Below are positions 2,792-61,151 of a DNA stretch of 64,000 nucleotides, in pieces. A program made the position numbers and the translations under genes. The stretch comes from Candidatus Multivorans sp. (GTDB taxonomy: Bacteria > Acidobacteriota > Thermoanaerobaculia > Multivoradales > Multivoraceae): the NCBI GenBank assembly GCA_965224025.1, contig OZ245033.1, positions 2,016,001-2,080,000 on the forward strand. The letters run 5' to 3'. How positions within the stretch are numbered: the stretch's first letter is position 1; each line of letters starts with the position of its first letter. Below the pieces are notes generated by a model, which made no database searches, was not told where the DNA came from, and was given only the letters and a program-made list of their open reading frames with translations.

Positions 2792-4561
2792 CTAGGGCAG
2801 CGCGAACACGAACAGGTTGTTGCCCGAGCTGGGGCGCAACTCCGGCGTGAGCCCGGCCGAGAGGGCCGCCGACGTGCTACCCGTGCTGGCGACGACGTAC
2901 TGGCGCCCGTCGACTCCGAAGCTGATGGGGAAGCCGGTGACCGGTGAGCCGAGGTTTATCTCCCAGATGCTCTCGCCGGTCTCCTGGTCCAGGGCGCGGA
3001 ACCGGCCGTTGCCGTCGCCGACGAAGACCAGGCCGCCGGCGGTGACGAACAGTGACATCAGCCCCGCGCGCTGCTCGTAGGTCCACAGGGACTTGCCGGT
3101 TTCGGCAGACACGGCGTGGATGGCGCCGCTCAGGTCGGTGCCTTGCGCAATCTGGTGCTCGGCATCCAGGGCGTAGATCGCAAGCCGGCCGGCGCGCGTC
3201 GCCGTCATCAGGGCGCACGAGTTGCGCATCGGCACGTACATCGCGTTCGTCAGCGGGCTGTAGGCGCCGGCCTGCCAGTCCTTGCCGCCGATGTAGGTGG
3301 GGCAGACGTAGGCCTCCTGCCCCAGCTCGCGGAACACGACTTCCGTGTTCTCGGTGACCTTGCCGTCGCCGTCGATCGTGCTGATGACGTTCTGCCTGAT
3401 CGTCGGCCTCGCCCACAGGAACTCGCCGGTTTCGCGGTCGAGGGCGTACACCACGCCCGTCTTGCCGGGAACCCCGGTGATCACCTTGCGCACCTCGCCC
3501 GGCTCCACGCGGGGATTGATCCAGTCGACCGCGTCGGCGTCGGGCGCCACCGCCGTATCGACGAGTAGCCGCTCGAAGGGGTGGTCGAGGTCCCAGTGGT
3601 CGTTGAGGTGCTGGTAGTGCCACGCGATCTCGCCGGTGTTCGCGTCGAGCGCGAGGGTGGAGTTGTGGTACAGGTGCCTGAGATCCCTGCCGCCGAGCAG
3701 GAACTTCGGCGCCGGCGACGTCACCGAGGTGCCGATGTAGATGAGCTCCAGGCCCGGGTCGTAGCTCGGCACCATCCAGGCGCCGACGTGGGTACGATCC
3801 TCGAACGGGATGTCGCCCCAGGTTTCGTTGCCCGGCTCTCCCGGCGCCGGAATCGTGCGGCGCCGCCAGAGTTCGGCCCCGGTCTTCGCGTCGTGGGCGA
3901 CGATGACGCAGGCGTCGGGGCCGCCGCGGGGCAGGCAACTGCGGCCCGAGATCACCTTGCCGTCGGCGATGATCGGGCCGGAGCTCTGCATCGCCGGCTG
4001 GGTCTTATAGTCGAGGATCATCGTCTCCCAGACCAACTCGCCCGTCGCCGCGTCGAGCGCGAAGACGAACTCGTCGACGCTGGTGTCGATGATCAGGTCG
4101 CCGTAGATCGCGATGTTCCGGTTGTTGGCCGCCAGCGAGCCGACCTGCTGGAGGATGTTGTCCGGGTGCTGGCGCCGGTACTCCCAGATGAGGACCCCTT
4201 CCGTGGCGTCGATGGCCTGGATGACGTCGATGGGGTTCGGCATGTACATCACGCCGTCGTAGACGAGCGGCGTCCCCTGCTGGCGGCCGTCGCTCATGCC
4301 GCGGGACCAGACCAACCGCAGGTCGCCTACGTTCTCGGGCGTGATCTGGTCGAGCGGGCTGTAGCCCCAGCCGTCGAGCGTTCGGCGCCACATCAACCAG
4401 TCGTCGTCGCTCGGGTCCTGGAGCATGGCGTCCGTGACCGGCACGAAGTCGCTTCGTTCAGGCGAGCTTGCCGTCTGTGCCTCGGCGACCGGGGTCCAGA
4501 GGACCACCGTCAGGAGGACGGCGAGAAGTGCCGCCTGGAGCAAGAAACCGCGCTGAGTCAC
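2792..4561 (-). CDS. PQQ-dependent dehydrogenase / PQQ-binding beta-propeller protein, secreted
   Basis: Signal peptide from GTG 4561; DWLMWRRT..GWGYSPLDQI, QGTPLVYDG, repeated A(L)DAxTGxxxW propeller motifs, DHWDLD, C-terminal GRQYVV. Confidence 0.9.
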   Translation of the reverse strand: MTQRGFLLQAALLAVLLTVVLWTPVAEAQTASSPERSDFVPVTDAMLQDPSDDDWLMWRRTLDGWGYSPLDQITPENVGDLRLVWSRGMSDGRQQGTPLVYDGVMYMPNPIDVIQAIDATEGVLIWEYRRQHPDNILQQVGSLAANNRNIAIYGDLIIDTSVDEFVFALDAATGELVWETMILDYKTQPAMQSSGPIIADGKVISGRSCLPRGGPDACVIVAHDAKTGAELWRRRTIPAPGEPGNETWGDIPFEDRTHVGAWMVPSYDPGLELIYIGTSVTSPAPKFLLGGRDLRHLYHNSTLALDANTGEIAWHYQHLNDHWDLDHPFERLLVDTAVAPDADAVDWINPRVEPGEVRKVITGVPGKTGVVYALDRETGEFLWARPTIRQNVISTIDGDGKVTENTEVVFRELGQEAYVCPTYIGGKDWQAGAYSPLTNAMYVPMRNSCALMTATRAGRLAIYALDAEHQIAQGTDLSGAIHAVSAETGKSLWTYEQRAGLMSLFVTAGGLVFVGDGNGRFRALDQETGESIWEINLGSPVTGFPISFGVDGRQYVVASTGSTSAALSAGLTPELRPSSGNNLFVFALP

Positions 4562-4721
4562 AGGAAGGTGTGACTCTAGCTGAGTTGTAGCTCGGAGGAT
4601 GGTCGCCGCTTTGCGGCGGGTCTTTTCCCAGAAGCCGGCCAGAGGGCCGGCGCACCTGTACCTTTCCGGGATGCATTCTGGCGTGTCGTTGAGAGAGGTG
4701 GAATGGACCAGTAGCCGTCGT

Positions 4722-4817
4722 GGCTGCGGTAGCTGTGGGAAACCGGCTTGCCGGTTTTCCAAGGTCCGGCGGGAAACGGTCTGCCGTTTTCCGCCGGACC
4801 GGCAGCTTCCGCAGCCG
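4722..4817. repeat. Multi-hairpin structured segment in IS left end (also 9511-9606)
   Basis: Outer GGCTGCGG...CCGCAGCC stem enclosing GGAAACCGGC/GCCGGTTTTCC and GGTCCGGCGG...CCGCCGGACC hairpins. Confidence 0.7.
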
Positions 4818-4865
4818 AGACCGCCGGTCGGTTGCGTCTCCGGCCTGCCGGAGTCACTGAAGGAA

Positions 4866-5022
4866 AGTCGGCAAGCAGCCAGGAGCGACCACCGGCGCAC
4901 TGTGCTTCGAGCACCTGGCTGGGACCCGTGCCCTGGCTGCTTTGCCGCGTTGGACGCCCAGTGGAGAGTCAGTGCCTTAGAGCACCAGTACAGGTACGGG
5001 CAGGCAACGCGGCATGCCGACC
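4866..5022 (+). ncRNA. Putative IS110 bridge RNA core (target-binding and donor-binding loops), copy 1
   Basis: Closing helix GTCGGCA/TGCCGAC; stem GCAGCCAGG/CCTGGCTGC encloses CCGGCGCAC and CTGGG (target halves); stem GCCGCGTTG/CAACGCGGC encloses GTGGAGAGTC and GTACAGG (donor halves). Confidence 0.85.
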
Positions 5023-5056
5023 AGGCAACACTACCGCAAGGGAGAAGGAGGACGAG

Positions 5057-6312
5057 ATGATCAGGACGTGGTTCGCCGGCGTGGACTGGGGGTCCGAAAC
5101 CCACCACGTGTGTGTTTGCTGGGTCGGGACGGCAAGGTGAGGGGGGAGCGGGCGTTCGACCACAGCGGCAAGGGACTTGCCGCCATGGCCGACTGGCTCC
5201 TTGGACATGCACGACCGACGCCTCCGGGCGAGATCGGCGTCGCCATCGAGGTGCCGCACGGACCGGTCGTCGAGTGCCTCCTGGAGCGAGGCTTCGCCGT
5301 CCATTCGATCAACCCCAAGCAGCTCGACCGCTTCAGGGACCGCTTCTCCGTCGCCGGCGCCAAGGATGACCGCCGCGATGCACGGGCGCTCGCCGCCGCG
5401 CTTCGCACCGACCCCGAGTGCCTGAACCGCGTGCAACCATCCGATGCCGCCATCGTCATGCTGCGCGAGGTGTCCCGCGCCCGCAAGCAGTTGGTCAACC
5501 AGAAGAACCGCCTGGAGAACCAGGTCCGCGACCAGATCTGGCGCTACTACCCGCAGTTTCTCGCCGTGGTCAAGAACGAGGTGTCGGCGCCCTTCGCGCT
5601 GGCCTTGTGGCGACTGGCGCCGACCCCCGGCAAGGCTCGACGGCTGCGCGAGACCACGCTCGCCAAGCTGCTCAAGGAACACCGCATCCGGCGCCTGACT
5701 GCCGCCCAACTGCGCGATCAACTGCGGGCCGAGCCGATCGCCGTTTCCCCGGACACCGTTAAGGCCGCCGTCGAACACATAGGACTCCTCCGGCCGGTGC
5801 TCGACACCGTCTGCCGCCAACTCGCCGACGCCGACAAGCGGCTGGAGCGGATGACCCGCGCACTCGAGGCCCCGGCCCAACGGGAAAACGACGACGACTC
5901 CCCTAAGCCGAGCGACGCCGCCATCCTCAGGTCGCTGCCCGGACTCGGCAAGGTCGGCCTCGCCACCCTGCTCTCCGAGGCCGATCAAAGCCTGGGCCGC
6001 AGAGACTACGAGGCACTGCGTTGCCTCTGCGGAGTGGCGCCGGTGACCGTCAAGTCCGGCAAGAAGCTCATCGTCATGCGACGACTCGCCGCCAACGAGC
6101 ACCTCAGCGACGCCGTCTATCACTGGGGACGAGTCGCCATCCAGCACGACCCGATCAGCCGCGCCAAGTACGACGCCATGAAAGCCGAAGGCAAGACACA
6201 CGGACGAGCCATCAGACAACTCGTCGATCGACTCCTCGGCGTCGCCTGCGCCATGCTCCGAGACCGCACTCTCTTCGACCCCAACAAGAGAAGCCATGCC
6301 CAGGTCGCATGA
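5057..6312 (+). pseudogene. IS110 transposase/recombinase, frameshifted
   Basis: GVDWG, IEVPHG, KDDRRDA (DEDD) and APVTVKSGK (catalytic Ser) motifs; a 2-nt TT insertion near 5114-5116 relative to copy 2 shifts the frame after about 20 codons. Confidence 0.9.
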
Positions 6313-6347
6313 CCTGCCTGACCCGCAGCAACCTCCCCAAAACACAC

Positions 6348-6353
6348 TTGCTA
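6348..6353 (+). promoter_or_regulatory. -35 box (TTGCTA) of circle-junction promoter; partner -10 TACCTT at 4659-4664
   Basis: Joining right end, CC and left end gives TTGCTA-17 nt-TACCTT; same in copy 2 (11135-11140 and 9448-9453). Confidence 0.7.
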
Positions 6354-6413
6354 AAGGGTGGAGAGTCCCAGTTTTCCAGAAGGGCGGCGCAGCCGGCTCC
6401 TGGGGGCCAACTT

Positions 6414-7550
6414 CTAGCGGGACGAGGAGAGCCGGACTTCCAGGTTCTCTTCGCCGTCGCTTCGCACCACGGTCACCGTGACGACGTCGCCGACGCGGAA
6501 GTCCTCGACGATCGTGTGGACGTCGTTCACCGAGGCGACCTGACGACCTTCGATCGCGGTGATCAGGTCGCCCAGGACGATGCCGCGGCGTGTCCGCCGG
6601 CTTTCGCGCATGCCGGCTCGTTCGGCGCCGGAGCCCGGCACCACCCTGGTGACCAGCGCGCCCTTGACGCCGCGCGCGCGGAGCAGGGAGTCGTCCAGCT
6701 CGACGCCGATCAGCGGTCGCTCGACTTCGCCGTGCGCGATCAGTTCCGGGACGACCCAGTTCACGGTGTCCACCGGGATCGCGAATCCGATACCGCCCCA
6801 GGCGCCGCTGGAAGAGACGATCTGGGTGTTCACGCCGATCAGCCGGCCGCTCGAGTCGAGCAGGGGGCCGCCGGAGTTGCCCGGGTTGATCGCGGCATCG
6901 GTCTGAATCACGCCGCGGATCAGGCGGTTGGTGAGCGAAGACACCTCACGATCCAGGGCGCTGATCACACCTGTGGTCAGGGTGTGGTCGAGACCGAAGG
7001 GGTCGCCGATGGCGAGCACGGACTGGCCCACCTGAAGGTCGCGCGAAGTGCCGACCGCGATGGGCCGCAGCTTGTCTGCCGGCGCCTCGATCTTCAGCAC
7101 GGCAAGATCCACATGCGGGTCGCCGCCGATCACCTGGGCCGGCCAGGTGCTCTGATCGCTCAGGGTGACGAGCGTTTCGTGGGCGCGGAACACGACGTGG
7201 AAGTTCGTGACCACGTGACCCTTCGCGTCCCAGATGAAGCCGGTGCCGGTGCCCTCCGGAACGCGGTCGATGCGGCGGGCGAAGACGTTGCGGCGGTTCG
7301 GCACGGTAGTGATGTTCACCACCGAGGGCGAGGCCTTCCGGAACAGCTCGACCGTGGTGCGTTCCTCCGGCAGGAGCCCGCCGGCCGGCGCCACCTGGCG
7401 CGGCTCGACGCGGCTGTCGGCCTCCAGGACGCTGCCCTGCCACCTCGAGCCGAAGACGAAAGCGAGAAGGGCGAGGACGACGAGGCCGGAGGCAGCGGCA
7501 AAACGCGGCCGGGGCCGTCCTTCCGGTCCAGATGGAGTTCCGTGGGGCAT
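6414..7550 (-). CDS. HtrA/DegQ-like trypsin serine protease with one PDZ domain
   Basis: GTGTGFIW, VTNFHV, DLAVL, IQTDAAINPGNSGGPL; N-terminal transmembrane segment; C-terminal PDZ. Confidence 0.93.
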   Translation of the reverse strand: MPHGTPSGPEGRPRPRFAAASGLVVLALLAFVFGSRWQGSVLEADSRVEPRQVAPAGGLLPEERTTVELFRKASPSVVNITTVPNRRNVFARRIDRVPEGTGTGFIWDAKGHVVTNFHVVFRAHETLVTLSDQSTWPAQVIGGDPHVDLAVLKIEAPADKLRPIAVGTSRDLQVGQSVLAIGDPFGLDHTLTTGVISALDREVSSLTNRLIRGVIQTDAAINPGNSGGPLLDSSGRLIGVNTQIVSSSGAWGGIGFAIPVDTVNWVVPELIAHGEVERPLIGVELDDSLLRARGVKGALVTRVVPGSGAERAGMRESRRTRRGIVLGDLITAIEGRQVASVNDVHTIVEDFRVGDVVTVTVVRSDGEENLEVRLSSSR

Positions 7551-7614
7551 GGACTAAAGCTAACAGGAGTTGGTTCCCGGTTTCTTCCCTTCGGCGCCGC
7601 TACCATTCGCGCCC

Positions 7615-9315
7615 GTGACCGCCATCGAACTCCTGAACGCAGATCCCCTGCTAGCTGCCGCTCTGGACCGGCGCCGCCGCCAGTGGCGCGAGGCGGACGC
7701 TACAGTTCGCCTGTGGTCCGGCGACGGTTCGCTCTGGACGGATTCCGGCGAGGCGGAGTGGCTGGGTTGGCTCGACGTCGAGCGGCTCGGCCGCGTGTCG
7801 GTCTCGAAGCCTGACGGCGACCGCGTCGAGATGGCGGCTGCCGACCTTGCGGAGCATCTCGCCGGCCGACCCTTTGAACGCTGCCTGCTGCTCGGCATGG
7901 GCGGCTCGGCGCTCGGCGCGGACCTGCTCTGGCGGGCGCTGCCGCGCCGGGTCGATGCCGAGTACATCGTCCTCGACACGACGGATCCGCGGGAGATCGC
8001 GTCGGCTCTGGATGGTGTCGCGCCCGCGTCGTTGAAGGTCATCGCGGCGTCCAAGTCGGGCGGCACGATCGAAACGAGGCTGGCGTTCGAGCTGCTGCTC
8101 GACCGGCTGGGGCCGGCGGCTTCGTCGGCGGCGTTGGCGATCACGGATCCGGGCTCCGCGCTCGAAGAACGCGCCCGGGCCGCCGGTGCCGGGGTCGTCT
8201 TCGGCCACCCGGACATCGGCGGGCGGTTCTCCGTGCTGTCGGCGTTCGGCCTGGCGCCGGCGGCGGTAGCGGGCATCGACGTGGAGCCGCTTCTTGGGAG
8301 CGCGCGGGCGATGGCCGCGGCGTGCCGGCGCGGCGGAACGGATTCAGAGACGAACCCCGGGGTCGAGCTGGGGTTGCTGCTCGCGGCGGCGCACGACTGC
8401 GGCCGCGACAAGCTCTATCTTCATGCCCCGGCCAAGTGCGCGGCGATGGCCGCGTGGGTCGAGCAACTGATCGCCGAGTCCCTCGGAAAGGGCGACGTAC
8501 TGCTGTTGCCTGTCGCTGCGGCCGGCGTGCCGGCGGAGCCGAACCCGGACCGGCTCGACGTCGTGCTCGGAAACGTGAGTGGCAACGGTGCGCAGGCCTC
8601 GGCGCCGGTGCCTGACGGTCCGGTCGTCCGGATCGGCGCGGACCTTCCGGTCGACCTCGGCGGCGAGTTCTTCCGCTGGCAGTTCGCCACGGCCGTGGCC
8701 GGAGCACTGCTGGGCCTCAACCCCTTCGACCAGCCGGACGTGGAGTCGTCCAAGGTCGTCACCCGGCGCTACGTCGAGCGGATGAAGGCCGGCGATGCGC
8801 CGGCGCCCGGTGGCGTGGTCCGGCTGAGCGAGGTCAGCGAGCTAGGGCTCGCCCAGCTCCTGGGCACGCACCTCGGGACGTTCCCGGAGAGCGGCTACGC
8901 CGTCATCTCGGCCTATCTTGATCGCAGCGACCGCAACCGGGAGCTGCTCCAGACTCTGCGCCGGCGCGTCGCCGACGTCACAGGCGGCGCGTCCGTGCTC
9001 GGTTTCAGTCCGAGCTTCCTGCACTCGACGGGACAGGCGCACAAGGGCGGCCCCAACCGCGGTCTGTTCCTGCAGATCACCGCCGATCCGCCGGCTGCGG
9101 ACATCTCGGTTCCAGGCGTTGGCCTGACCTTCGGCCAGGTCCAGCTCGCCCAGGCCTGGGGCGACTACGAAGTGCTCGTCGAGCGGAAGCGTCGGGTGCT
9201 CGCCGTCCATCTCGACGGCGAGGTGGAGGAAGGGGTGCGGCGGTTGGTGACTGGGTGCGCCGGCGTCCCCGCCGGCTCGCCGCCGAAGGCGGCCAAGGAA
9301 ACGCGCCGGCCGTAA
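7615..9315 (+). CDS. Glucose-6-phosphate isomerase-like protein (PGI domain of Tal-PGI type)
   Basis: WLGWLD, LGMGGSALG, ASKSGGTIET, AITDPGS, IGGRFSVLS, EQLIAESLGK, NPFDQPDVE, HSTGQAHKGGP. Confidence 0.85.
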   Translation: MTAIELLNADPLLAAALDRRRRQWREADATVRLWSGDGSLWTDSGEAEWLGWLDVERLGRVSVSKPDGDRVEMAAADLAEHLAGRPFERCLLLGMGGSALGADLLWRALPRRVDAEYIVLDTTDPREIASALDGVAPASLKVIAASKSGGTIETRLAFELLLDRLGPAASSAALAITDPGSALEERARAAGAGVVFGHPDIGGRFSVLSAFGLAPAAVAGIDVEPLLGSARAMAAACRRGGTDSETNPGVELGLLLAAAHDCGRDKLYLHAPAKCAAMAAWVEQLIAESLGKGDVLLLPVAAAGVPAEPNPDRLDVVLGNVSGNGAQASAPVPDGPVVRIGADLPVDLGGEFFRWQFATAVAGALLGLNPFDQPDVESSKVVTRRYVERMKAGDAPAPGGVVRLSEVSELGLAQLLGTHLGTFPESGYAVISAYLDRSDRNRELLQTLRRRVADVTGGASVLGFSPSFLHSTGQAHKGGPNRGLFLQITADPPAADISVPGVGLTFGQVQLAQAWGDYEVLVERKRRVLAVHLDGEVEEGVRRLVTGCAGVPAGSPPKAAKETRRP

Positions 9316-9402
9316 GGCCGGCACTGCGAGCGGTCAGAGTGGAGCGAGGCTGGCGCCTCGCCGTTTCTTCTCAGAAGCCGGCGGGGACGCCGGCGCACCC
9401 AG
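9251..9402. repeat. REPIN-like unit: inverted pair of GCCGGCGGGGACGCCGGCGCACCCAG (9251-9276 minus, 9377-9402 plus)
   Basis: Exact inverted copies; internal hairpins shared with 31348-31470. Confidence 0.85.
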
Positions 9403-9654
9403 TGCGAGGCGCCGTGCCGAGAACCGGCGGGGACGCCGGCGCACCTGTACCTTTCTCGGGTGGATTCTGGTGGGTCGTTGAGAGAGGTGGAATCGACCAG
9501 TAGCCGTCGCGGCTGCGGTAGCTGTGGGAAACCGGCTTGCCGGTTTTCCAAGGTCCGGCGGGAAACGGTCTGCCGTTTTCCGCGGGACCGGCAGCTTCCG
9601 CAGCCGAGACCGCCGGTCGGTTGCGTCTCCGGCCTGCCGGAGTCACTGAAGGAA

Positions 9655-9811
9655 GGTCGGCAAGCAGCCAGGAGCGACCACCGGCGCACTGTGCTTCGAG
9701 CACCTGGCTGGGACCCGTGCCCTGGCTGCTTCGCCGCGTTGGACGCCCAGTGGAGAGTCAGTGCCTTAGAGCACCAGTACAGGTACGGGCAGGCAACGCG
9801 GCATGCCGACC
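9655..9811 (+). ncRNA. Putative IS110 bridge RNA core, copy 2
   Basis: Same stems and identical guide segments as 4866-5022. Confidence 0.85.
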
Positions 9812-9845
9812 AGGCAACACTACCGCAAGGGAGAAGGAGGACGAG

Positions 9846-11099
9846 ATGACCAGGACGTGGTTCGTCGGCGTGGACTGGGGGTCCGAGACCCACCACGTGT
9901 GTGTGCTGGATCGGGACGGCAAGGTGAGGGGGGAGCGGGCGTTCGACCACAGCGGCAAGGGACTTGCCGCCATGGCCGACTGGCTCCTTGGACATACCCG
10001 ACCGACGTCTCCGGACGAGATCGGCGTCGCCATCGAGGTGCCGCACGGACCGGTGGTCGAGACTCTCCTGGAGCGGGGCTTCGCCGTGCATTCGATCAAC
10101 CCCAAGCAGCTCGACCGCTTCAGGGACCGCTTCTCCGTCGCCGGCGCCAAGGATGACCGCCGCGATGCACGGGCGCTCGCCGCCGCGCTTCGCACCGACC
10201 CCGAGTGCCTGAACCGCGTGCAACCATCCGATGCAGCCATCGTGATGCTGCGCGAGGTGTCCCGCGGCCGCAAGCAGTTGGTCGGCCAGAAGAACCGCCT
10301 GGAGAACCAAGTCCGCGACCAGATCTGGCGCTACTACCCGCAGTTTCTCGCCGTGGTCAAGAACGAGGTGTCGGCGCCCTTCGCGCTGGCCTTGTGGCGA
10401 CTGGCGCCGACCCCCGGCAAGGCTCGACGGCTGCGCGAAGCCACGCTCGCCAAACTGCTCAAGGAACACCGCATCCGGCGCCTGACTGCCGCCCAACTGC
10501 GCGATCAACTGCGGGCCGAGCCGATCGCCGTTTCCCCGGACACCGTTAAGGCCGCCGTCGAACACATAGGACTCCTCCGGCCGGTGCTCGACACCGTCTG
10601 CCGCCAACTCGCCGACGCCGACAAGCGGCTGGAGCGGATGACCCGCGCACTCGAGGCCCCGGCCCAACGGGAAAACGACGACGACTCCCCTAAGCCGAGC
10701 GACGCCGCCATCCTCAGGTCGCTGCCCGGACTCGGCAAGGTCGGCCTCGCCACCCTGCTCTCCGAGGCCGATCAAAGCCTGGGCCGCAGAGACCACGAGG
10801 CACTGCGTTGCCTCTGCGGAGTGGCGCCGGTGACCGTCAAGTCCGGCAAGAAGCTCATCGTCATGCGACGACTCGCCGCCAACGAACACCTCAGCGACGC
10901 CGTCTATCACTGGGGACGAGTCGCCATCCAGCACGACCCGATCAGCCGCGCCAAGTACGACGCCATGAAAGCCCAGGGAAAGACGCACGGACGCGCCATC
11001 AGACAACTCGTCGACCGACTCCTCGGCGTCGCCTGCGCCATGCTCCGAGACCGAACTCTCTTCGACCCCAACAAGCGATGCCATGCCCAGGTCGCATGA
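9846..11099 (+). CDS. IS110 family transposase/bridge recombinase (intact, 417 aa)
   Basis: AAGGAGG RBS; DEDD RuvC-like motifs, coiled-coil linker, C-terminal Tnp domain with VAPVTVKSGK. Confidence 0.95.
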   Translation: MTRTWFVGVDWGSETHHVCVLDRDGKVRGERAFDHSGKGLAAMADWLLGHTRPTSPDEIGVAIEVPHGPVVETLLERGFAVHSINPKQLDRFRDRFSVAGAKDDRRDARALAAALRTDPECLNRVQPSDAAIVMLREVSRGRKQLVGQKNRLENQVRDQIWRYYPQFLAVVKNEVSAPFALALWRLAPTPGKARRLREATLAKLLKEHRIRRLTAAQLRDQLRAEPIAVSPDTVKAAVEHIGLLRPVLDTVCRQLADADKRLERMTRALEAPAQRENDDDSPKPSDAAILRSLPGLGKVGLATLLSEADQSLGRRDHEALRCLCGVAPVTVKSGKKLIVMRRLAANEHLSDAVYHWGRVAIQHDPISRAKYDAMKAQGKTHGRAIRQLVDRLLGVACAMLRDRTLFDPNKRCHAQVA

Positions 11100-11162
11100 C
11101 CTCCCTGACCCGCAGCAGCCTCCCCAAAACACACTTGCTAAAGGGTGGAGAGTCCCGGTGGG

Positions 11163-11426: not shown

Positions 11427-11583
11427 TCGAGAGTCCGGCAATTCTAGGAGCTTGCGCCGCAGAACGCTACGGGTGAGTTCGCGGCGCAAGCTCCTGGAAG
11501 CGGACGGGATGGGCCGAAACACCGAGCCTGCGAGGGGTTTCGGGGCGGTAGCGGTGCAGGCGGTTCAGGATGTCGACCTGAGA

Positions 11584-26966: not shown

Positions 26967-28355
26967 ATGAGGCAATTCAAGACGTTGCGAGGAGCTTGCG
27001 CGGCGGAAACTGGGTGCGCCGGCGCCCCCGCCGGCATCCGGTGCGAAGCGTCGGCCTTCTGTAGTTCTGCCGCCGTAGCGCTAGCGGTTGCCGCCGGCTG
27101 CTTACTTCTGATCGCCTGCGGGTCCACCGAACTCGTCACTCTGCCGGAGATCGACACCTCCGGTTCGCCGGACGGCATCGTCGACCTTCCCGCCGACGCG
27201 CCCGAGGTGTTCCACAAGTACTTCGACCGGTACGCCTGGTTCCCGACGCCGGACGGCAGGCGGATCCACTTCCTCGTCTCGAGCGGCTGGACCCGCGACC
27301 AGATCAAGCACGGCCTCAACGTGATGGAGCATCTGCTGGCGGACCACCCGGGCTCGGTCTACGGCGACGACAAGTCCGGGATCGCCGTGGCGATGGCGGA
27401 CCGCAAGGCGACGATGGTGTTCTTCGACACGGAGGACGACCTGCGCCAGGCGATGAGCGAGGGACTGGCCGACGCGACGGATCTCAGCATGCAGGACCTG
27501 CGCGCGAACGAATGTCCGGCCCCGGGCGACGCGGACTACATGGGTCATGTGACCAGGGACGCCGCCTACGAGGAGATCTGGCACCTGATCCACGACTACG
27601 GGATCAAGCCGACCCTCACTTCGATGATCGCCGAGATGAGGACGGCGAACGACGAAGCGGCGACCAAGAGCTGGTACGCGTGGCCCCGTGACGTGCCGGA
27701 CGACCATCCGAACGAGTACATGGGCGCCCTGATCGACAACTACTACGACCTCTGGACGGTGCCGCCGACCGTGTACGAGGGGCGCGACATCGCGCCCGAC
27801 GAGATTCCCGAGGGATACTCCCACTTCGGGCAGTACTTCGCGGGCAGTCGCGCGGCCATGCCGGAGAAGGACCCGCTCGGCTACGCGTTGGTCACGAACT
27901 TCGTCGGGCCGTATCTGACCTACACGCCGGAACTGCCGCTGGACTTCAGCGGCACGTTCTCGATGACGTTCGCCCCGGAGGTGCGGTACACGATGAAGAC
28001 CCAGCATCTGCGGAACGTCGCGCTCACCGGCGACGGCGACGCGGACCTGCGCGGCAACGCTCACGACAATGTGCTCACCGGCAACGGCGGCGCCAACCGG
28101 CTCGAGGGCGGCGGCGGCAACGACATGCTTGACGGCGGCGACGGCGACGACACGGCGGTCTTCTCGGCCCCGGCGGCCGAGTACGAAGTCGCCGCCGGTG
28201 AGGACGGAGTGACGGTGACCGACTCGCAGCCGGACCGCGACGGGACGGACACGCTGCGAGCGGTTGAGTTCCTGCAGTTCAGCGATGCCCTCGTGGACCA
28301 GGTGGGCGGTCGGGTCTGGGAGCGCGGCGTGCAACTGGACCAGCCGGAACAGTAG
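26967..28355 (+). CDS. Lipoprotein with EEIWH zincin-like domain and RTX/hemolysin-type Ca-binding repeats
   Basis: LIAC lipobox; AAYEEIWHLIH; GNGGANRLEGGGGNDMLDGGDGDD; DGTDTLRAVEFLQFSD. Confidence 0.75.
   Translation: MRQFKTLRGACAAETGCAGAPAGIRCEASAFCSSAAVALAVAAGCLLLIACGSTELVTLPEIDTSGSPDGIVDLPADAPEVFHKYFDRYAWFPTPDGRRIHFLVSSGWTRDQIKHGLNVMEHLLADHPGSVYGDDKSGIAVAMADRKATMVFFDTEDDLRQAMSEGLADATDLSMQDLRANECPAPGDADYMGHVTRDAAYEEIWHLIHDYGIKPTLTSMIAEMRTANDEAATKSWYAWPRDVPDDHPNEYMGALIDNYYDLWTVPPTVYEGRDIAPDEIPEGYSHFGQYFAGSRAAMPEKDPLGYALVTNFVGPYLTYTPELPLDFSGTFSMTFAPEVRYTMKTQHLRNVALTGDGDADLRGNAHDNVLTGNGGANRLEGGGGNDMLDGGDGDDTAVFSAPAAEYEVAAGEDGVTVTDSQPDRDGTDTLRAVEFLQFSDALVDQVGGRVWERGVQLDQPEQ
27010..27035 (-). 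repeat. REP-like unit (GCCGGCGGGGGCGCCGGCGCACCCAG)
   Basis: Matches the IS target family; lies in the 5' coding region. Confidence 0.8.
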
Positions 28356-31347: not shown

Positions 31348-31486
31348 CTGGATGCGCCGGCGTCCTCGCCGGCTGCCGCCGCAGGCGGCCAGGAACACGC
31401 GCCGGCCGACGGCCGGCACCTTCGCTTCGCGGCGGCGCCCGGATGCCGGCGAGGACGCCGGCGCACCCAGTTTGTGGCGCACCCAG
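31348..31486. repeat. REPIN-like unit between convergent genes (REPs 31348-31373 minus, 31445-31470 plus, extra GGCGCACCCAG)
   Basis: Shares REPs and internal hairpins with 9251-9402. Confidence 0.85.
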
Positions 31487-44301: not shown

Positions 44302-46131
44302 TTACCGCTGCGGGCCGACCGCTTCTCCGTCGCCCTGAACCAACTCCTGGTACTCCCCGACTCGCACGCCCGTCCACTGCTCGACCGTGCCATCCGGCCA
44401 ACGGACCTCGACGTGGCTGACGGCGGCGTTCGCGCCATCGCCCAAGCCGGCCAGCACCCGCGGATCGCGGGCTGACGCGTAGCTGCCGTCGGTGTGGACG
44501 TGGCGCCAGATCGGCGCTGCGCCCTGCCGGTGGATCAGGACCTGGGCGCCCAGGGCGTCGCGGTTGTGGGACACGAGTCTCAAGCCCAGCCAGGGCTTGT
44601 CCTGACCGACCTGGTTCAGGAGCAGACGGGTCGGTGCGTTGCTGTTGACGACGACGACGTCCAGGTCGCCGTCGTTGTCGACGTCGCCGAAGGCGGCGGC
44701 GCGGCTGACTTCGGACTCGTCGAAGACCGCGCCAGCCTCGGCCGTGACTTCCGCGAAGCTGCCGTCGCCGAGGTTGTGGAAGAGCTGGTCCGTCTGCCGC
44801 AGCGGGTAGGGGTCGCCTTCCCGGATCAACGCGTCCATGCCGATCACGGCGCCGTTGACGACGAGCACGTCGAGCCAGGAGTCGTTGTCGTAGTCGATCC
44901 AGCCGATGCCGAAGGCGGTGAACGGCAGGCTCGGCGGCCCGAGTTGGGTCGACGCCGATTGGTCCCGGAACAGTCCTGTGCCGCCGTTGACGTAGAGGGT
45001 GTTCGTCTCCTGTTCCAGGTGGCTGACGACGATGTCGGGATAGCCGTCGCCGTCGAAGTCCCCGGCGTCGACGCCCATGCCGGCCTCGGGCTGGCCTTCG
45101 CGGTTGACGGCGACTCCGGCCAGGAGGGCGTTGTCGGCGAAAGTCCCGTCGCCCCGGTTGATCCACAGCCGGTTCCACATCAGGTCGTTCGCTACGTAGA
45201 GGTCGATCCAGCGGTCGCCGTTGAAGTCGGCGGCAACGGCGCCGAGCCCCGAGCCGGTCTCGGCGCCGATTCCCGAGGCAGTCGACACGTCCTCGAAGGT
45301 GCCGTCGCCCCTGTTCCGGAACAGGCTGTCGGCTGCCGGCCGGTAGGCGCCGGGGGCGCAGTACGTCAGTACGCCGCTCGGGAGCGGGCACGGCTTGTGG
45401 TCCGCCAGCGAGTAGTCGACGTAGTTGCCGACGTAGAGGTCCAGCCAGCCGTCGCGGTCGAAGTCGAAGAACGTGGCGGCGACGGACCAGCGGGGATCGT
45501 CGGCGCCCGAGGCGGCCGTGACGTCGTCGAACGTGCCGTCGCCGCGGTTTCGCAGTAACTGGTTGGCGCCGAAGTTCGTGACGTAGAGGTCCGTCCAATC
45601 GTCGTTGTCGAAGTCGCCCGTGGTGACGCCCATGCCGTAGCCGGCGGCTTCGATGCGGCTGGCGCCGGTGACGTCGGTGAAACGGAGGTTGGCGCTGGCG
45701 GCGCCGGGTTCCAGGTCGTTGCGGTAGAGGCGGTCGGTGAGCGGCGTGCCGGGAGGCGGCGGAAACAAGGCGTCCTCGAGCGTGAGGTTGGGGCCGATCA
45801 TCCGGCCCTGGAGGAGGTAGACGTCCAGGTCGCCGTCGTTGTCGAAGTCGAACAGGGCCGCGCCGCCGCCCATGATCTCGTTGAAGTAGTGCTCGCCGGA
45901 CATACCGTTGAAGTAGACGAAGTCGAGGTTCGCGGCGGGGGCGGCGTCGATGAAGATGGACGGTGGAGCGGCGATGTTGGGGTCGGGGGCTGGACTGCAG
46001 GAGGCGAGGAAGAACGTGAGGGCGAGGGCGATGTACTGGCTCGCCGCTTCGCGGCATCGCGCTTGATGCGGACCAGAGGGTCCGCGCACCCAGAGAACGG
46101 ACGTCGGCTTGGCGGGGTTCTCTACATCCAT
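44302..46131 (-). CDS. CRTAC1-family protein (FG-GAP + ASPIC/UnbV)
   Basis: EIMGGGAALFDFDNDGDLD, repeated DxDxDG motifs, GSYASARDPR; start uncertain. Confidence 0.9.
   Translation of the reverse strand: MDVENPAKPTSVLWVRGPSGPHQARCREAASQYIALALTFFLASCSPAPDPNIAAPPSIFIDAAPAANLDFVYFNGMSGEHYFNEIMGGGAALFDFDNDGDLDVYLLQGRMIGPNLTLEDALFPPPPGTPLTDRLYRNDLEPGAASANLRFTDVTGASRIEAAGYGMGVTTGDFDNDDWTDLYVTNFGANQLLRNRGDGTFDDVTAASGADDPRWSVAATFFDFDRDGWLDLYVGNYVDYSLADHKPCPLPSGVLTYCAPGAYRPAADSLFRNRGDGTFEDVSTASGIGAETGSGLGAVAADFNGDRWIDLYVANDLMWNRLWINRGDGTFADNALLAGVAVNREGQPEAGMGVDAGDFDGDGYPDIVVSHLEQETNTLYVNGGTGLFRDQSASTQLGPPSLPFTAFGIGWIDYDNDSWLDVLVVNGAVIGMDALIREGDPYPLRQTDQLFHNLGDGSFAEVTAEAGAVFDESEVSRAAAFGDVDNDGDLDVVVVNSNAPTRLLLNQVGQDKPWLGLRLVSHNRDALGAQVLIHRQGAAPIWRHVHTDGSYASARDPRVLAGLGDGANAAVSHVEVRWPDGTVEQWTGVRVGEYQELVQGDGEAVGPQR
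46038..46107 (+). repeat. REP-family variant (GCGGACCAGAGGGTCCGCGCACCCAG) with flanks; copy at 61083-61151
   Basis: Near-identical ~70-bp copies. Confidence 0.85.
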
Positions 46132-61082: not shown

Positions 61083-61151
61083 GGCTCGCCGCTTCGCGGC
61101 ATCGCCCGGATGCGGACCAGAGGGTCCGCGCACCCAGAGAACGGGCGTCGG
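61083..61151 (+). repeat. REP-family variant, copy of 46038-46107
   Basis: GCGGACCAGAGGGTCCGCGCACCCAG at 61112-61137. Confidence 0.85.

Follow-up and report, generated by a model that had tools for sequence, protein, structure and literature searches.

In a 64,000-nt stretch of the genome of the acidobacterium Candidatus Multivorans sp. (GenBank assembly GCA_965224025.1, contig OZ245033.1, positions 2,016,001 to 2,080,000; hereafter the window), we analyzed two copies of an IS110-group insertion sequence (IS) together with the GC-rich hairpins beside which they lie, which resemble repetitive extragenic palindromes (REPs). The left end of this element very probably encodes a bridge RNA that guides insertion, with a CC core dinucleotide, to the 3' arm and tail of the REP-like hairpin. 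One internal loop of the RNA would read the target, a 14-nt stretch composed of the hairpin's 3' arm and the tail GCACCCAG, while the second would read the element's own joined ends (GUGGAGAGUC with the right end; GUACAGG with CC plus TGTAC). Recombination at the CC core would then place the element just 3' of the hairpin. This reading is carried by the insertion sites, the guide strings, an RNA fold whose two loops are conserved, and guides that co-vary with the flanks.

Copy 1 occupies 4657..6366 (+; 1,710 nt, TGTACC...GGAGAGT) and copy 2 occupies 9446..11153 (+; 1,708 nt, with its open reading frame (ORF) intact). The two are 97.2% identical, and both start with TGTACC and terminate with GGAGAGT, ends which, read directly from the sequence, are no inverted copies of each other. 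The layout, over about 1,708 nt, comprises a left end of 400 nt (9446-9845), the gene of a predicted 417-amino-acid DEDD/serine recombinase and a right end of only 54 nt (11100-11153); the absence of long terminal inverted repeats and a left end far longer than the right are features by which the IS110 group is recognized. A blastn search of the 5.14-Mb genome (GC content 0.676) with copy 2 recovered 12 full-length copies and two more with an 80-92-nt left-end deletion. These 14 near-full copies are the set used for all junction, flank and guide counts in this genome. The same search returned one copy split near both ends of contig 1 (C1) and several left-end fragments.

All 14 copies share their junctions and face the same way with respect to the repeat, and the consensus site reads ...CCGGCG[C/T]A-CC, element, CC-C[A/G]G[T/C]. 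The left half-site of copy 1 (4634..4656, +) contains the hairpin GCCGGCC/AGAG/GGCCGGC (4634-4651), the stretch matched by the left guide (4647-4655) and the core CC (4655-4656), and its right half-site (6367..6372, +) is the core CC followed by the right target CAGT. In copy 2 the left half-site (9424..9445, +) holds the hairpin (A)CCGGCG/GGGA/CGCCGGC, a guide-matched stretch at 9436-9444 and the core CC at 9444-9445, and the right half-site (11154..11159, +) is the core CC with the right target CGGT, whose G would face a guide U. Both left flanks in the window end in ...CCGGCGCA-CC. Genome-wide, 10 copies have the left flank CCGGCGCACC and four have CCGGCGTACC, and on the right CCCAGT follows nine copies, CCCAGC four and CCCGGT one. 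Two sister genomes have the same left junction in 4/4 and 17/17 copies, so that 21/21 lie at the same position of the repeat, and pooling these with the present genome gives right flanks of CCCAG in 33/35 and CCCGG in 2/35. Flanking sequence beyond about 25 nt differs between copies. A first-pass annotation made from the window alone had placed both copies at one position of a REP-like palindrome family, and this was borne out: removing the element and one CC yields the hairpin strings that it quoted. The genome-wide mapping it proposed extends the result to sequence-specific insertion, with a short core at both junctions, in 14/14 copies, and a search for copies whose flanks are unrelated to the repeat found none.

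The empty site reads GCGCA-CCC-AGT, the left junction GCGCA-CC-TGTACC and the right junction GAGT-CCC-AGT. Judged from these strings, only a CC core fits both junctions and the empty site jointly, because the left target ...GCGCA, the right target CAGT and an element TGTACC...GGAGAGT are all satisfied only by CC. In the accessible text on IS621 and its orthologues the core is CT, with the second T almost invariant (PMC11208158). The CT core of IS621 and its close orthologues was not found here, and it would require mismatched cores always to be resolved one way. It is likewise unfit in at least one class of relatives (L038; left flank GCGATCCC, right flank CCATTTG), where the right target does not begin with T; the guide of L077, whose right flank was not parsed, calls for a right target with A as its first letter. 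The CT core defines the IS621 subgroup, not the IS110 family. The phrase "CC core" had 0 occurrences in the seven listed, out of eight, papers that use at least three of the terms IS110, bridge RNA, core dinucleotide and CC core, a search which had supplementary tables outside its reach and is no proof that such a core is unreported.

The target occurs widely without the element. In the genome, 51 unoccupied 14-mers match CCGGCG[CT]ACCC[AG]G[CT], 38 of them CCGGCGCACCCAGT, where about four would be expected from base composition (hand arithmetic at the GC content given above), and unoccupied CCCGG sites number eight. Within the window, the perfect 14-mer CCGGCGCACCCAGT stands unoccupied in repeats at 9251..9276 (-), 9377..9402 (+; 34 nt upstream of the repeat holding copy 2), 27010..27035 (-) and 31445..31470 (+), and variant repeats with arm GGTCCGC and tail CAGA, differing at two left-guide positions, lie at 46068..46093 (+) and 61112..61137 (+); the first-pass annotation had listed all six, and each is present where it put them. 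Hairpins with a GCCGGC arm give 250 strand-counts, or about 125 hairpins, of which 25 carry the tail G[CT]ACCCAG, two carry CCCGG and 12 run into an element left end. The description of the repeat as abundant held in part: with about 65 tail-bearing sites and a family of about 125 hairpins, it is abundant only relatively. These are repeated extragenic palindromic hairpins, and a profile search (PF01797) of the genome, rated 100% complete, found no Y1 transposase of the REP-associated tyrosine transposase (RAYT) kind, while control genomes gave matches; the wording "REP-like" is apt since the search found no RAYT gene. The 14-mer also stands, without the GCCGGC hairpin, at the end of a second type of repeat, ...TCATCGGGCGCACGGATGGCA.. 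(for example C1:229498, 283514, 1605776, 1738947 and 2662216). This type forms the left flank of the copy at C1:2681646, its one use as an insertion site here, and a sister genome has two such insertions (L013, L032).

The unoccupied sites are uninterrupted, and the flanks of inserted copies together rebuild this same continuous repeat. This bears on a different account, in which hairpin and tail belong to the mobile unit, or in which copies spread by segmental duplication or repeat recombination with no site-specific insertion. Most copies do share sequence for some 20-25 nt past the element on the left, as that account would have it, but their loops, 5' arms and outer sequence differ, the rebuilt repeat occurs 51 times without the element, and orthologous sites in congeners have the repeat and no element. 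We regard it as highly improbable. At the orthologous loci of congeners each gene pair is found side by side with no element between, and the repeat in the spacer points one way or the other, is replaced by a variant, or is missing. The first-pass annotation had suggested a search of related genomes for empty alleles, and in congener L086 the repeat of the orthologous intergenic region, with GCACCCAGT, is uninterrupted and lacks the element. For copy 2, an element match was found in 0/8 compared congener loci; six of the eight were read, two with an unoccupied repeat (L125, L126), one with no repeat (L129) and three with other sequence (L122, L123, L128). Because orthologous congener spacers differ in repeat state, the repeats turn over, and the family is itself mobile or short-lived. 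Across the spacers L083-L089 and L122-L129 the repeat is present, inverted, altered in its arm or absent according to species.

The predicted bridge RNA lies in the 3' part of the left end. The 400-nt left end folds into a long 5' hairpin domain followed by two stem-loops with large internal loops (z = -7.7), and an Rfam search of it matched no family (best match 21 bits, gathering score 71). To the genome's own copies we added 80 fetched loci whose recombinases are 56-93% identical in amino acid sequence, from Candidatus Multivorans, other Thermoanaerobaculia, Vicinamibacterales, one Azospirillum and two other metagenome-assembled genomes. An alignment of 22 distinct, diverse 3' parts of left ends gave a consensus fold of 31 pairs in five helices, after removal of two weak in-loop pairs, in which 98.8% of cells are paired and 11/31 pairs show compensatory change on both sides. 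None of 500 shuffles reached the observed values, and slid controls paired in 28-43%. The scaffold is conserved and the second, donor loop is nearly invariant; both hypervariable segments are the target guides in the first internal loop.

In copy 2 the RNA region spans 9656..9823 (+) and comprises a target-binding and a donor-binding loop. Its left target guide, CCGGCGCAC (9681-9689), is identical to the left target's top strand followed by the first core C, and its right target guide, GCTGGG (9707-9712), is the reverse complement of CC-CAG-C. The left donor guide GTGGAGAGTC (9750-9759; GUGGAGAGUC as RNA) equals the right-end terminus plus the first core C, and the right donor guide GTACAGG (9777-9783) is the reverse complement of CC followed by TGTAC, the start of the left end. 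The corresponding region of copy 1, 4867..5034 (+), has its left target, right target, left donor and right donor guides at 4892-4900, 4918-4923, 4961-4970 and 4988-4994. A two-loop left-end RNA with letters matching target and donor is a further feature of the IS110 group. This is also the strand logic described for IS621, in which left guides pair with the bottom strand and right guides with the top strand, core included (PMC11208160). The predicted left target guide, CCGGCG[C/U]AC, starts five bases before the 3' arm ends and runs on through GCA to the first core C; its right counterpart, GCUGGG, spans CC-CAG-Y; and no guide letters stand opposite the hairpin loop or the 5' arm.

The specificity of these guides is best seen across relatives. 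The 94 elements considered (14 from this genome and the 80 fetched) include 92 that could be parsed, with 24 distinct guide pairs, and across very different targets their cognate matches are 8-10 nt long for the left guide and 6-8 nt for the right. Target letters follow the flanks through at least nine target types, including GGGGTCCC / CCTTTTC(A), GCGATCCC / CCATTTG, GTGGACGC / CCTCCCC, TTCGTCCC / CCCTCCC, AAGCGGATCC, AAGGAGCCC and GTGATAGCCC. Within the repeat-targeting group, the arm guide changes too. The element at L021, which the guide-flank script mis-parsed, has the arm guide CCGCGCAC and sits in a repeat with arm GACCCGC. The five elements L026-L030 have the arm guide UCCGCGCAC, two of them (L027, L030) in a repeat with arm GGTCCGC, and a C replaces U in their right guide, with CCCGGT flanks in 5/5. 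Sister lineages thereby seem to have re-tuned the arm guide to other arm variants. One recombinase clade with at least nine target types and matching guides is a natural case in which the rules of bridge-RNA targeting are readable from genomes.

The hairpin could also matter in another way, if the recombinase protein read its structure as the main determinant of the site and the RNA match were secondary, in the manner of the structural gate reported for ISPpu10. The hairpin is indeed common at occupied sites: 10 of the 14 insertions lie beside a perfect 7-bp hairpin and two more beside one with a single imperfect outer pair (by hand reading of the copy table), the stem's seventh pair co-varies (C-G or G-C) across the hairpin family, and the accessible part of the ISPpu10 preprint reports that the target stem-loop adds specificity (10.64898/2026.03.19.712850). 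Two insertions, at C1:2681646 and C1:35974, nevertheless have no adjacent canonical hairpin, yet do have the 14-mer. A perfect hairpin of at least 6 bp lies directly 5' of 30/51 unoccupied 14-mers and is missing from the other 21/51, so that the hairpin is not the sole carrier of the site, and relatives insert at non-palindromic, guide-matched targets. We consider it unlikely that structure is the main determinant, and a contribution of the hairpin can co-exist with guidance by the bridge RNA. The proposal first made from the window, that the hairpin's conserved arm and tail are read and its loop is not, is supported at the level of sequence by the predicted guide letters, which match the 3' arm and the tail, together with the two hairpin-less insertions.

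The target guide is itself polymorphic. At one position of the left target guide, 9 of the 14 copies have C and five have U, and only two other positions vary among these copies over the 185 nt compared. The variable guide position is the one where targets vary (GCAC or GTAC): a guide U could pair with A in GTAC targets or wobble with G in GCAC targets, and a guide C leaves a C-A mismatch on GTAC. On the right, the guide U stands opposite A in all copies but copy 2, where it meets G, and the 5' G faces C in four copies and T in 10. The wobble-capable guide letters, U and G, fall at exactly the variable target positions, namely the left C/T and the tail A/G and C/T, and two guide alleles co-exist in one genome, mirroring two repeat subtypes. 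Pooled with two sister genomes, C-allele copies have 24 GCAC and two GTAC flanks, and U-allele copies five GCAC and four GTAC; the association (one-sided hypergeometric probability about 0.03, by hand) is a hint only, as copies are non-independent. The CGG flank of copy 2 is plausibly a U-G wobble, and CGG flanks with U-guides recur in two other genomes (L001, L025); it may alternatively be a mutation after insertion. The orthologous repeat in two congeners (L125, L126) is unoccupied with tail CAGT, which is compatible with the G of CGGT predating the insertion or following it. The two alleles, with their U-G and G-T options, offer a testable natural example of how an element copes with variable repeats.

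Several observations weigh against guidance by the bridge RNA as set out here. A copy's own guide agrees with its own flank at the C/T position in only 9/14 copies. The left target and left donor guides match the first core base only, the next letters being U and A. Among relatives, the right flanks at L022 and L075 mismatch their own guide, L024, L040 and L066 have one left-flank mismatch each, the right flanks at L051 and L063 begin with the left end of another copy, and L048 and L076 could not be parsed; the argument for specificity draws on this table of cognate guides and flanks. No circle junction and no contig spanning the stretch was found among the assembled Logan contigs of four sequencing runs, the best word shares being 0.57 and 0.54. 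In the same contigs, a joint of 4561 to 6416 with 54 other letters between (one contig in X7, two in X9) was considered as an empty allele of copy 1 and rejected, the contigs differing from the window at about one base in 10; we read them as probably deriving from a related organism that has another spacer and lacks the element. The 5/14 disagreements between guide and flank could reflect either guiding in trans, tolerance of mismatch or wobble, or later mutation of the guide. Guiding by the RNA of other copies would be the simplest reading for these, because all copies share the same donor ends.

The recombinase supports assignment of the element to the IS110 family. The gene of copy 2 (9846..11099, +; 417 amino acids) encodes a protein with an N-terminal DEDD RuvC-like domain, PF01548 (1.5e-32), and a C-terminal Tnp domain, PF02371 (8e-13), both past curated cut-offs, and scores 173.9 bits against NCBIfam NF033542, "IS110 family RNA-guided transposase" (cut-off 140). 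An alignment to the IS621 transposase structure 8wt6 (E 2e-11) pairs the D, D..D and SG motifs (GVDWGSE/GIDTAKE, KDDRRDAR/KTDTVDAR and KSGKK/ESGSS), putative counterparts of the catalytic acidic residues and the conserved Ser. By sequence, the element is a member of the IS110 family with a predicted RNA-guided recombinase. The 417-codon ORF is retained in 10/14 copies, and three of the 14 have no stop within 420 codons. In copy 1 the ORF starts at 5057, acquires two extra nucleotides at about 5115-5116 and stops after 27 codons. A tblastn search of the genome with the recombinase found no other IS110-type gene; its only two matches below 90% identity, of 21 residues each, are N-terminal pieces of the same element (the start of copy 1 and the split copy). 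The halves of the split copy (C1:13083-13636 and C1:5044239-5045399, both on the minus strand, broken at about position 553) would lie about 15 kb apart if contig 1 is circular. A lone left-end fragment of 208 nt (C1:4322367-4322573; 96.6% identical, element positions 159-366) lacks the recombinase gene and, judging from its position range, would be expected to contain the loop that binds the target.

The 5' part of the left end contains a structured module of 115 nt (9498..9612, + in copy 2; 4709-4823 in copy 1), in which an outer stem encloses two GGGAAAC...GUUUUCC hairpins; each hairpin keeps a constant G-U pair while its other pairs co-vary. The module is part of the left end in this IS110 clade, whereas relatives in the Vicinamibacterales, with a left end of about 232 nt, do not have it. 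At roughly 86-89% identity over 80-140 nt it also adjoins the terminal repeats of an IS21-family element with an opposite-strand IstB-like ORF, and its occurrences in the genome outside the window include C1:3672575-3672706, 2474161-2474292, 4048787-4048915 and 1301954-1302035. We found it in 18/151 genomes of the order and in 10/19 congeners, and it matched no Rfam family. Two tentative proposals, which we think rather less likely than not, are that the guide is tuned to the whole polymorphic repeat family and, separately, that the module, shared by the unrelated IS110 and IS21 transposons of this genus, is a new structured RNA that might serve as a portable regulatory or insulating part. In the right end, a -35-like box, TTGCTA (11135..11140, +), was read by eye; relatives conserve it as CTTG(A/C)NA, always equally far from the end. 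With the ends joined in a circle, it would stand 17 nt upstream of the left-end TACCTT and might form a junction promoter. A promoter and terminator scan of linear copy 2 called no promoter, and called no terminator in the left-end module. By analogy with IS621, the RNA would be made and bound by the recombinase, the intermediate would be circular and the junction promoter would act at the circle.

Both copies in the window are intergenic. Copy 1 has the stop of an HtrA-type protease gene on one side and the start of a pyrroloquinoline quinone (PQQ)-dehydrogenase gene on the other, both genes being on the minus strand. Copy 2 sits in a cluster of three repeats, where a PGI-like gene and a helix-turn-helix (HTH) gene converge. 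Copy 1 stands about 100 nt (4560-4656) upstream of the start of the opposite-strand PQQ-dependent dehydrogenase gene, and may separate this gene from its upstream region. A separate multi-copy repeat of about 110 nt (11441-11554) lies upstream of the start of the HTH ORF and overlaps it; it has dozens of 83-94% matches across the genus and is missing at the orthologous place in many congeners.

The REP-like family resembles REPs and bacterial interspersed mosaic elements in its short GC-rich hairpins with a conserved tail, which are intergenic, clustered and found in both orientations, and in being present, absent or inverted at orthologous congener sites. It differs from REP systems with a RAYT in that no Y1 transposase was found in the genome, and in numbering only about 125 hairpins of the arm type. 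Insertion of IS110 elements into REP-type repeats has reportedly long been known, from Choi in 2003 and from Tobes and Pareja in 2006.

As far as the accessible portions of the IS621 reports go (PMC11208160, PMC11208158), the present element shares with IS621 a recombinase of DEDD and Tnp domains and a long left end encoding a two-loop RNA. Left guides likewise equal the top strand of the left target and donor, right guides complement the right target and donor, a core dinucleotide stands at both junctions, insertion is into a repeated extragenic palindrome, and the right end has a -35-like box. The differences are that the protein is only distantly alike (E 2e-11), that the core is CC here and CT in IS621, that the left end measures 400 nt with an extra 115-nt module, that the target repeat is unrelated to the E. 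coli REP, and that the host is an acidobacterium of the Thermoanaerobaculia, Candidatus Multivorans, in place of E. coli. With ISPpu10 of Pseudomonas putida, so far as the available preprint text describes it (10.64898/2026.03.19.712850), the element shares a REP-type target, a left target that is the 3' arm of a GC-rich stem-loop, and many intergenic sites. A section heading of that text reports action of the ISPpu10 recombinase in trans, which would fit the 5/14 copies here whose guide allele is unlike their flank. The ISPpu10 core is CT, as described there, and the role of its stem-loop was assayed, whereas the core here is CC and the stem-loop is known from sequence; 2/14 insertions here also lack the hairpin.

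REP targeting by IS110 elements (IS621, ISPpu10) and the RNA mechanism (IS621) are already established, and the main biology of the present element is unsurprising. What is modestly new is the CC core, the two C/U guide alleles that mirror the repeat subtypes, the 115-nt module common to IS21-family elements, and a clear series of guide-target co-variation. The CC core lies outside the CT preference described for IS621 and, if confirmed in assays, could widen the range of addressable sites.

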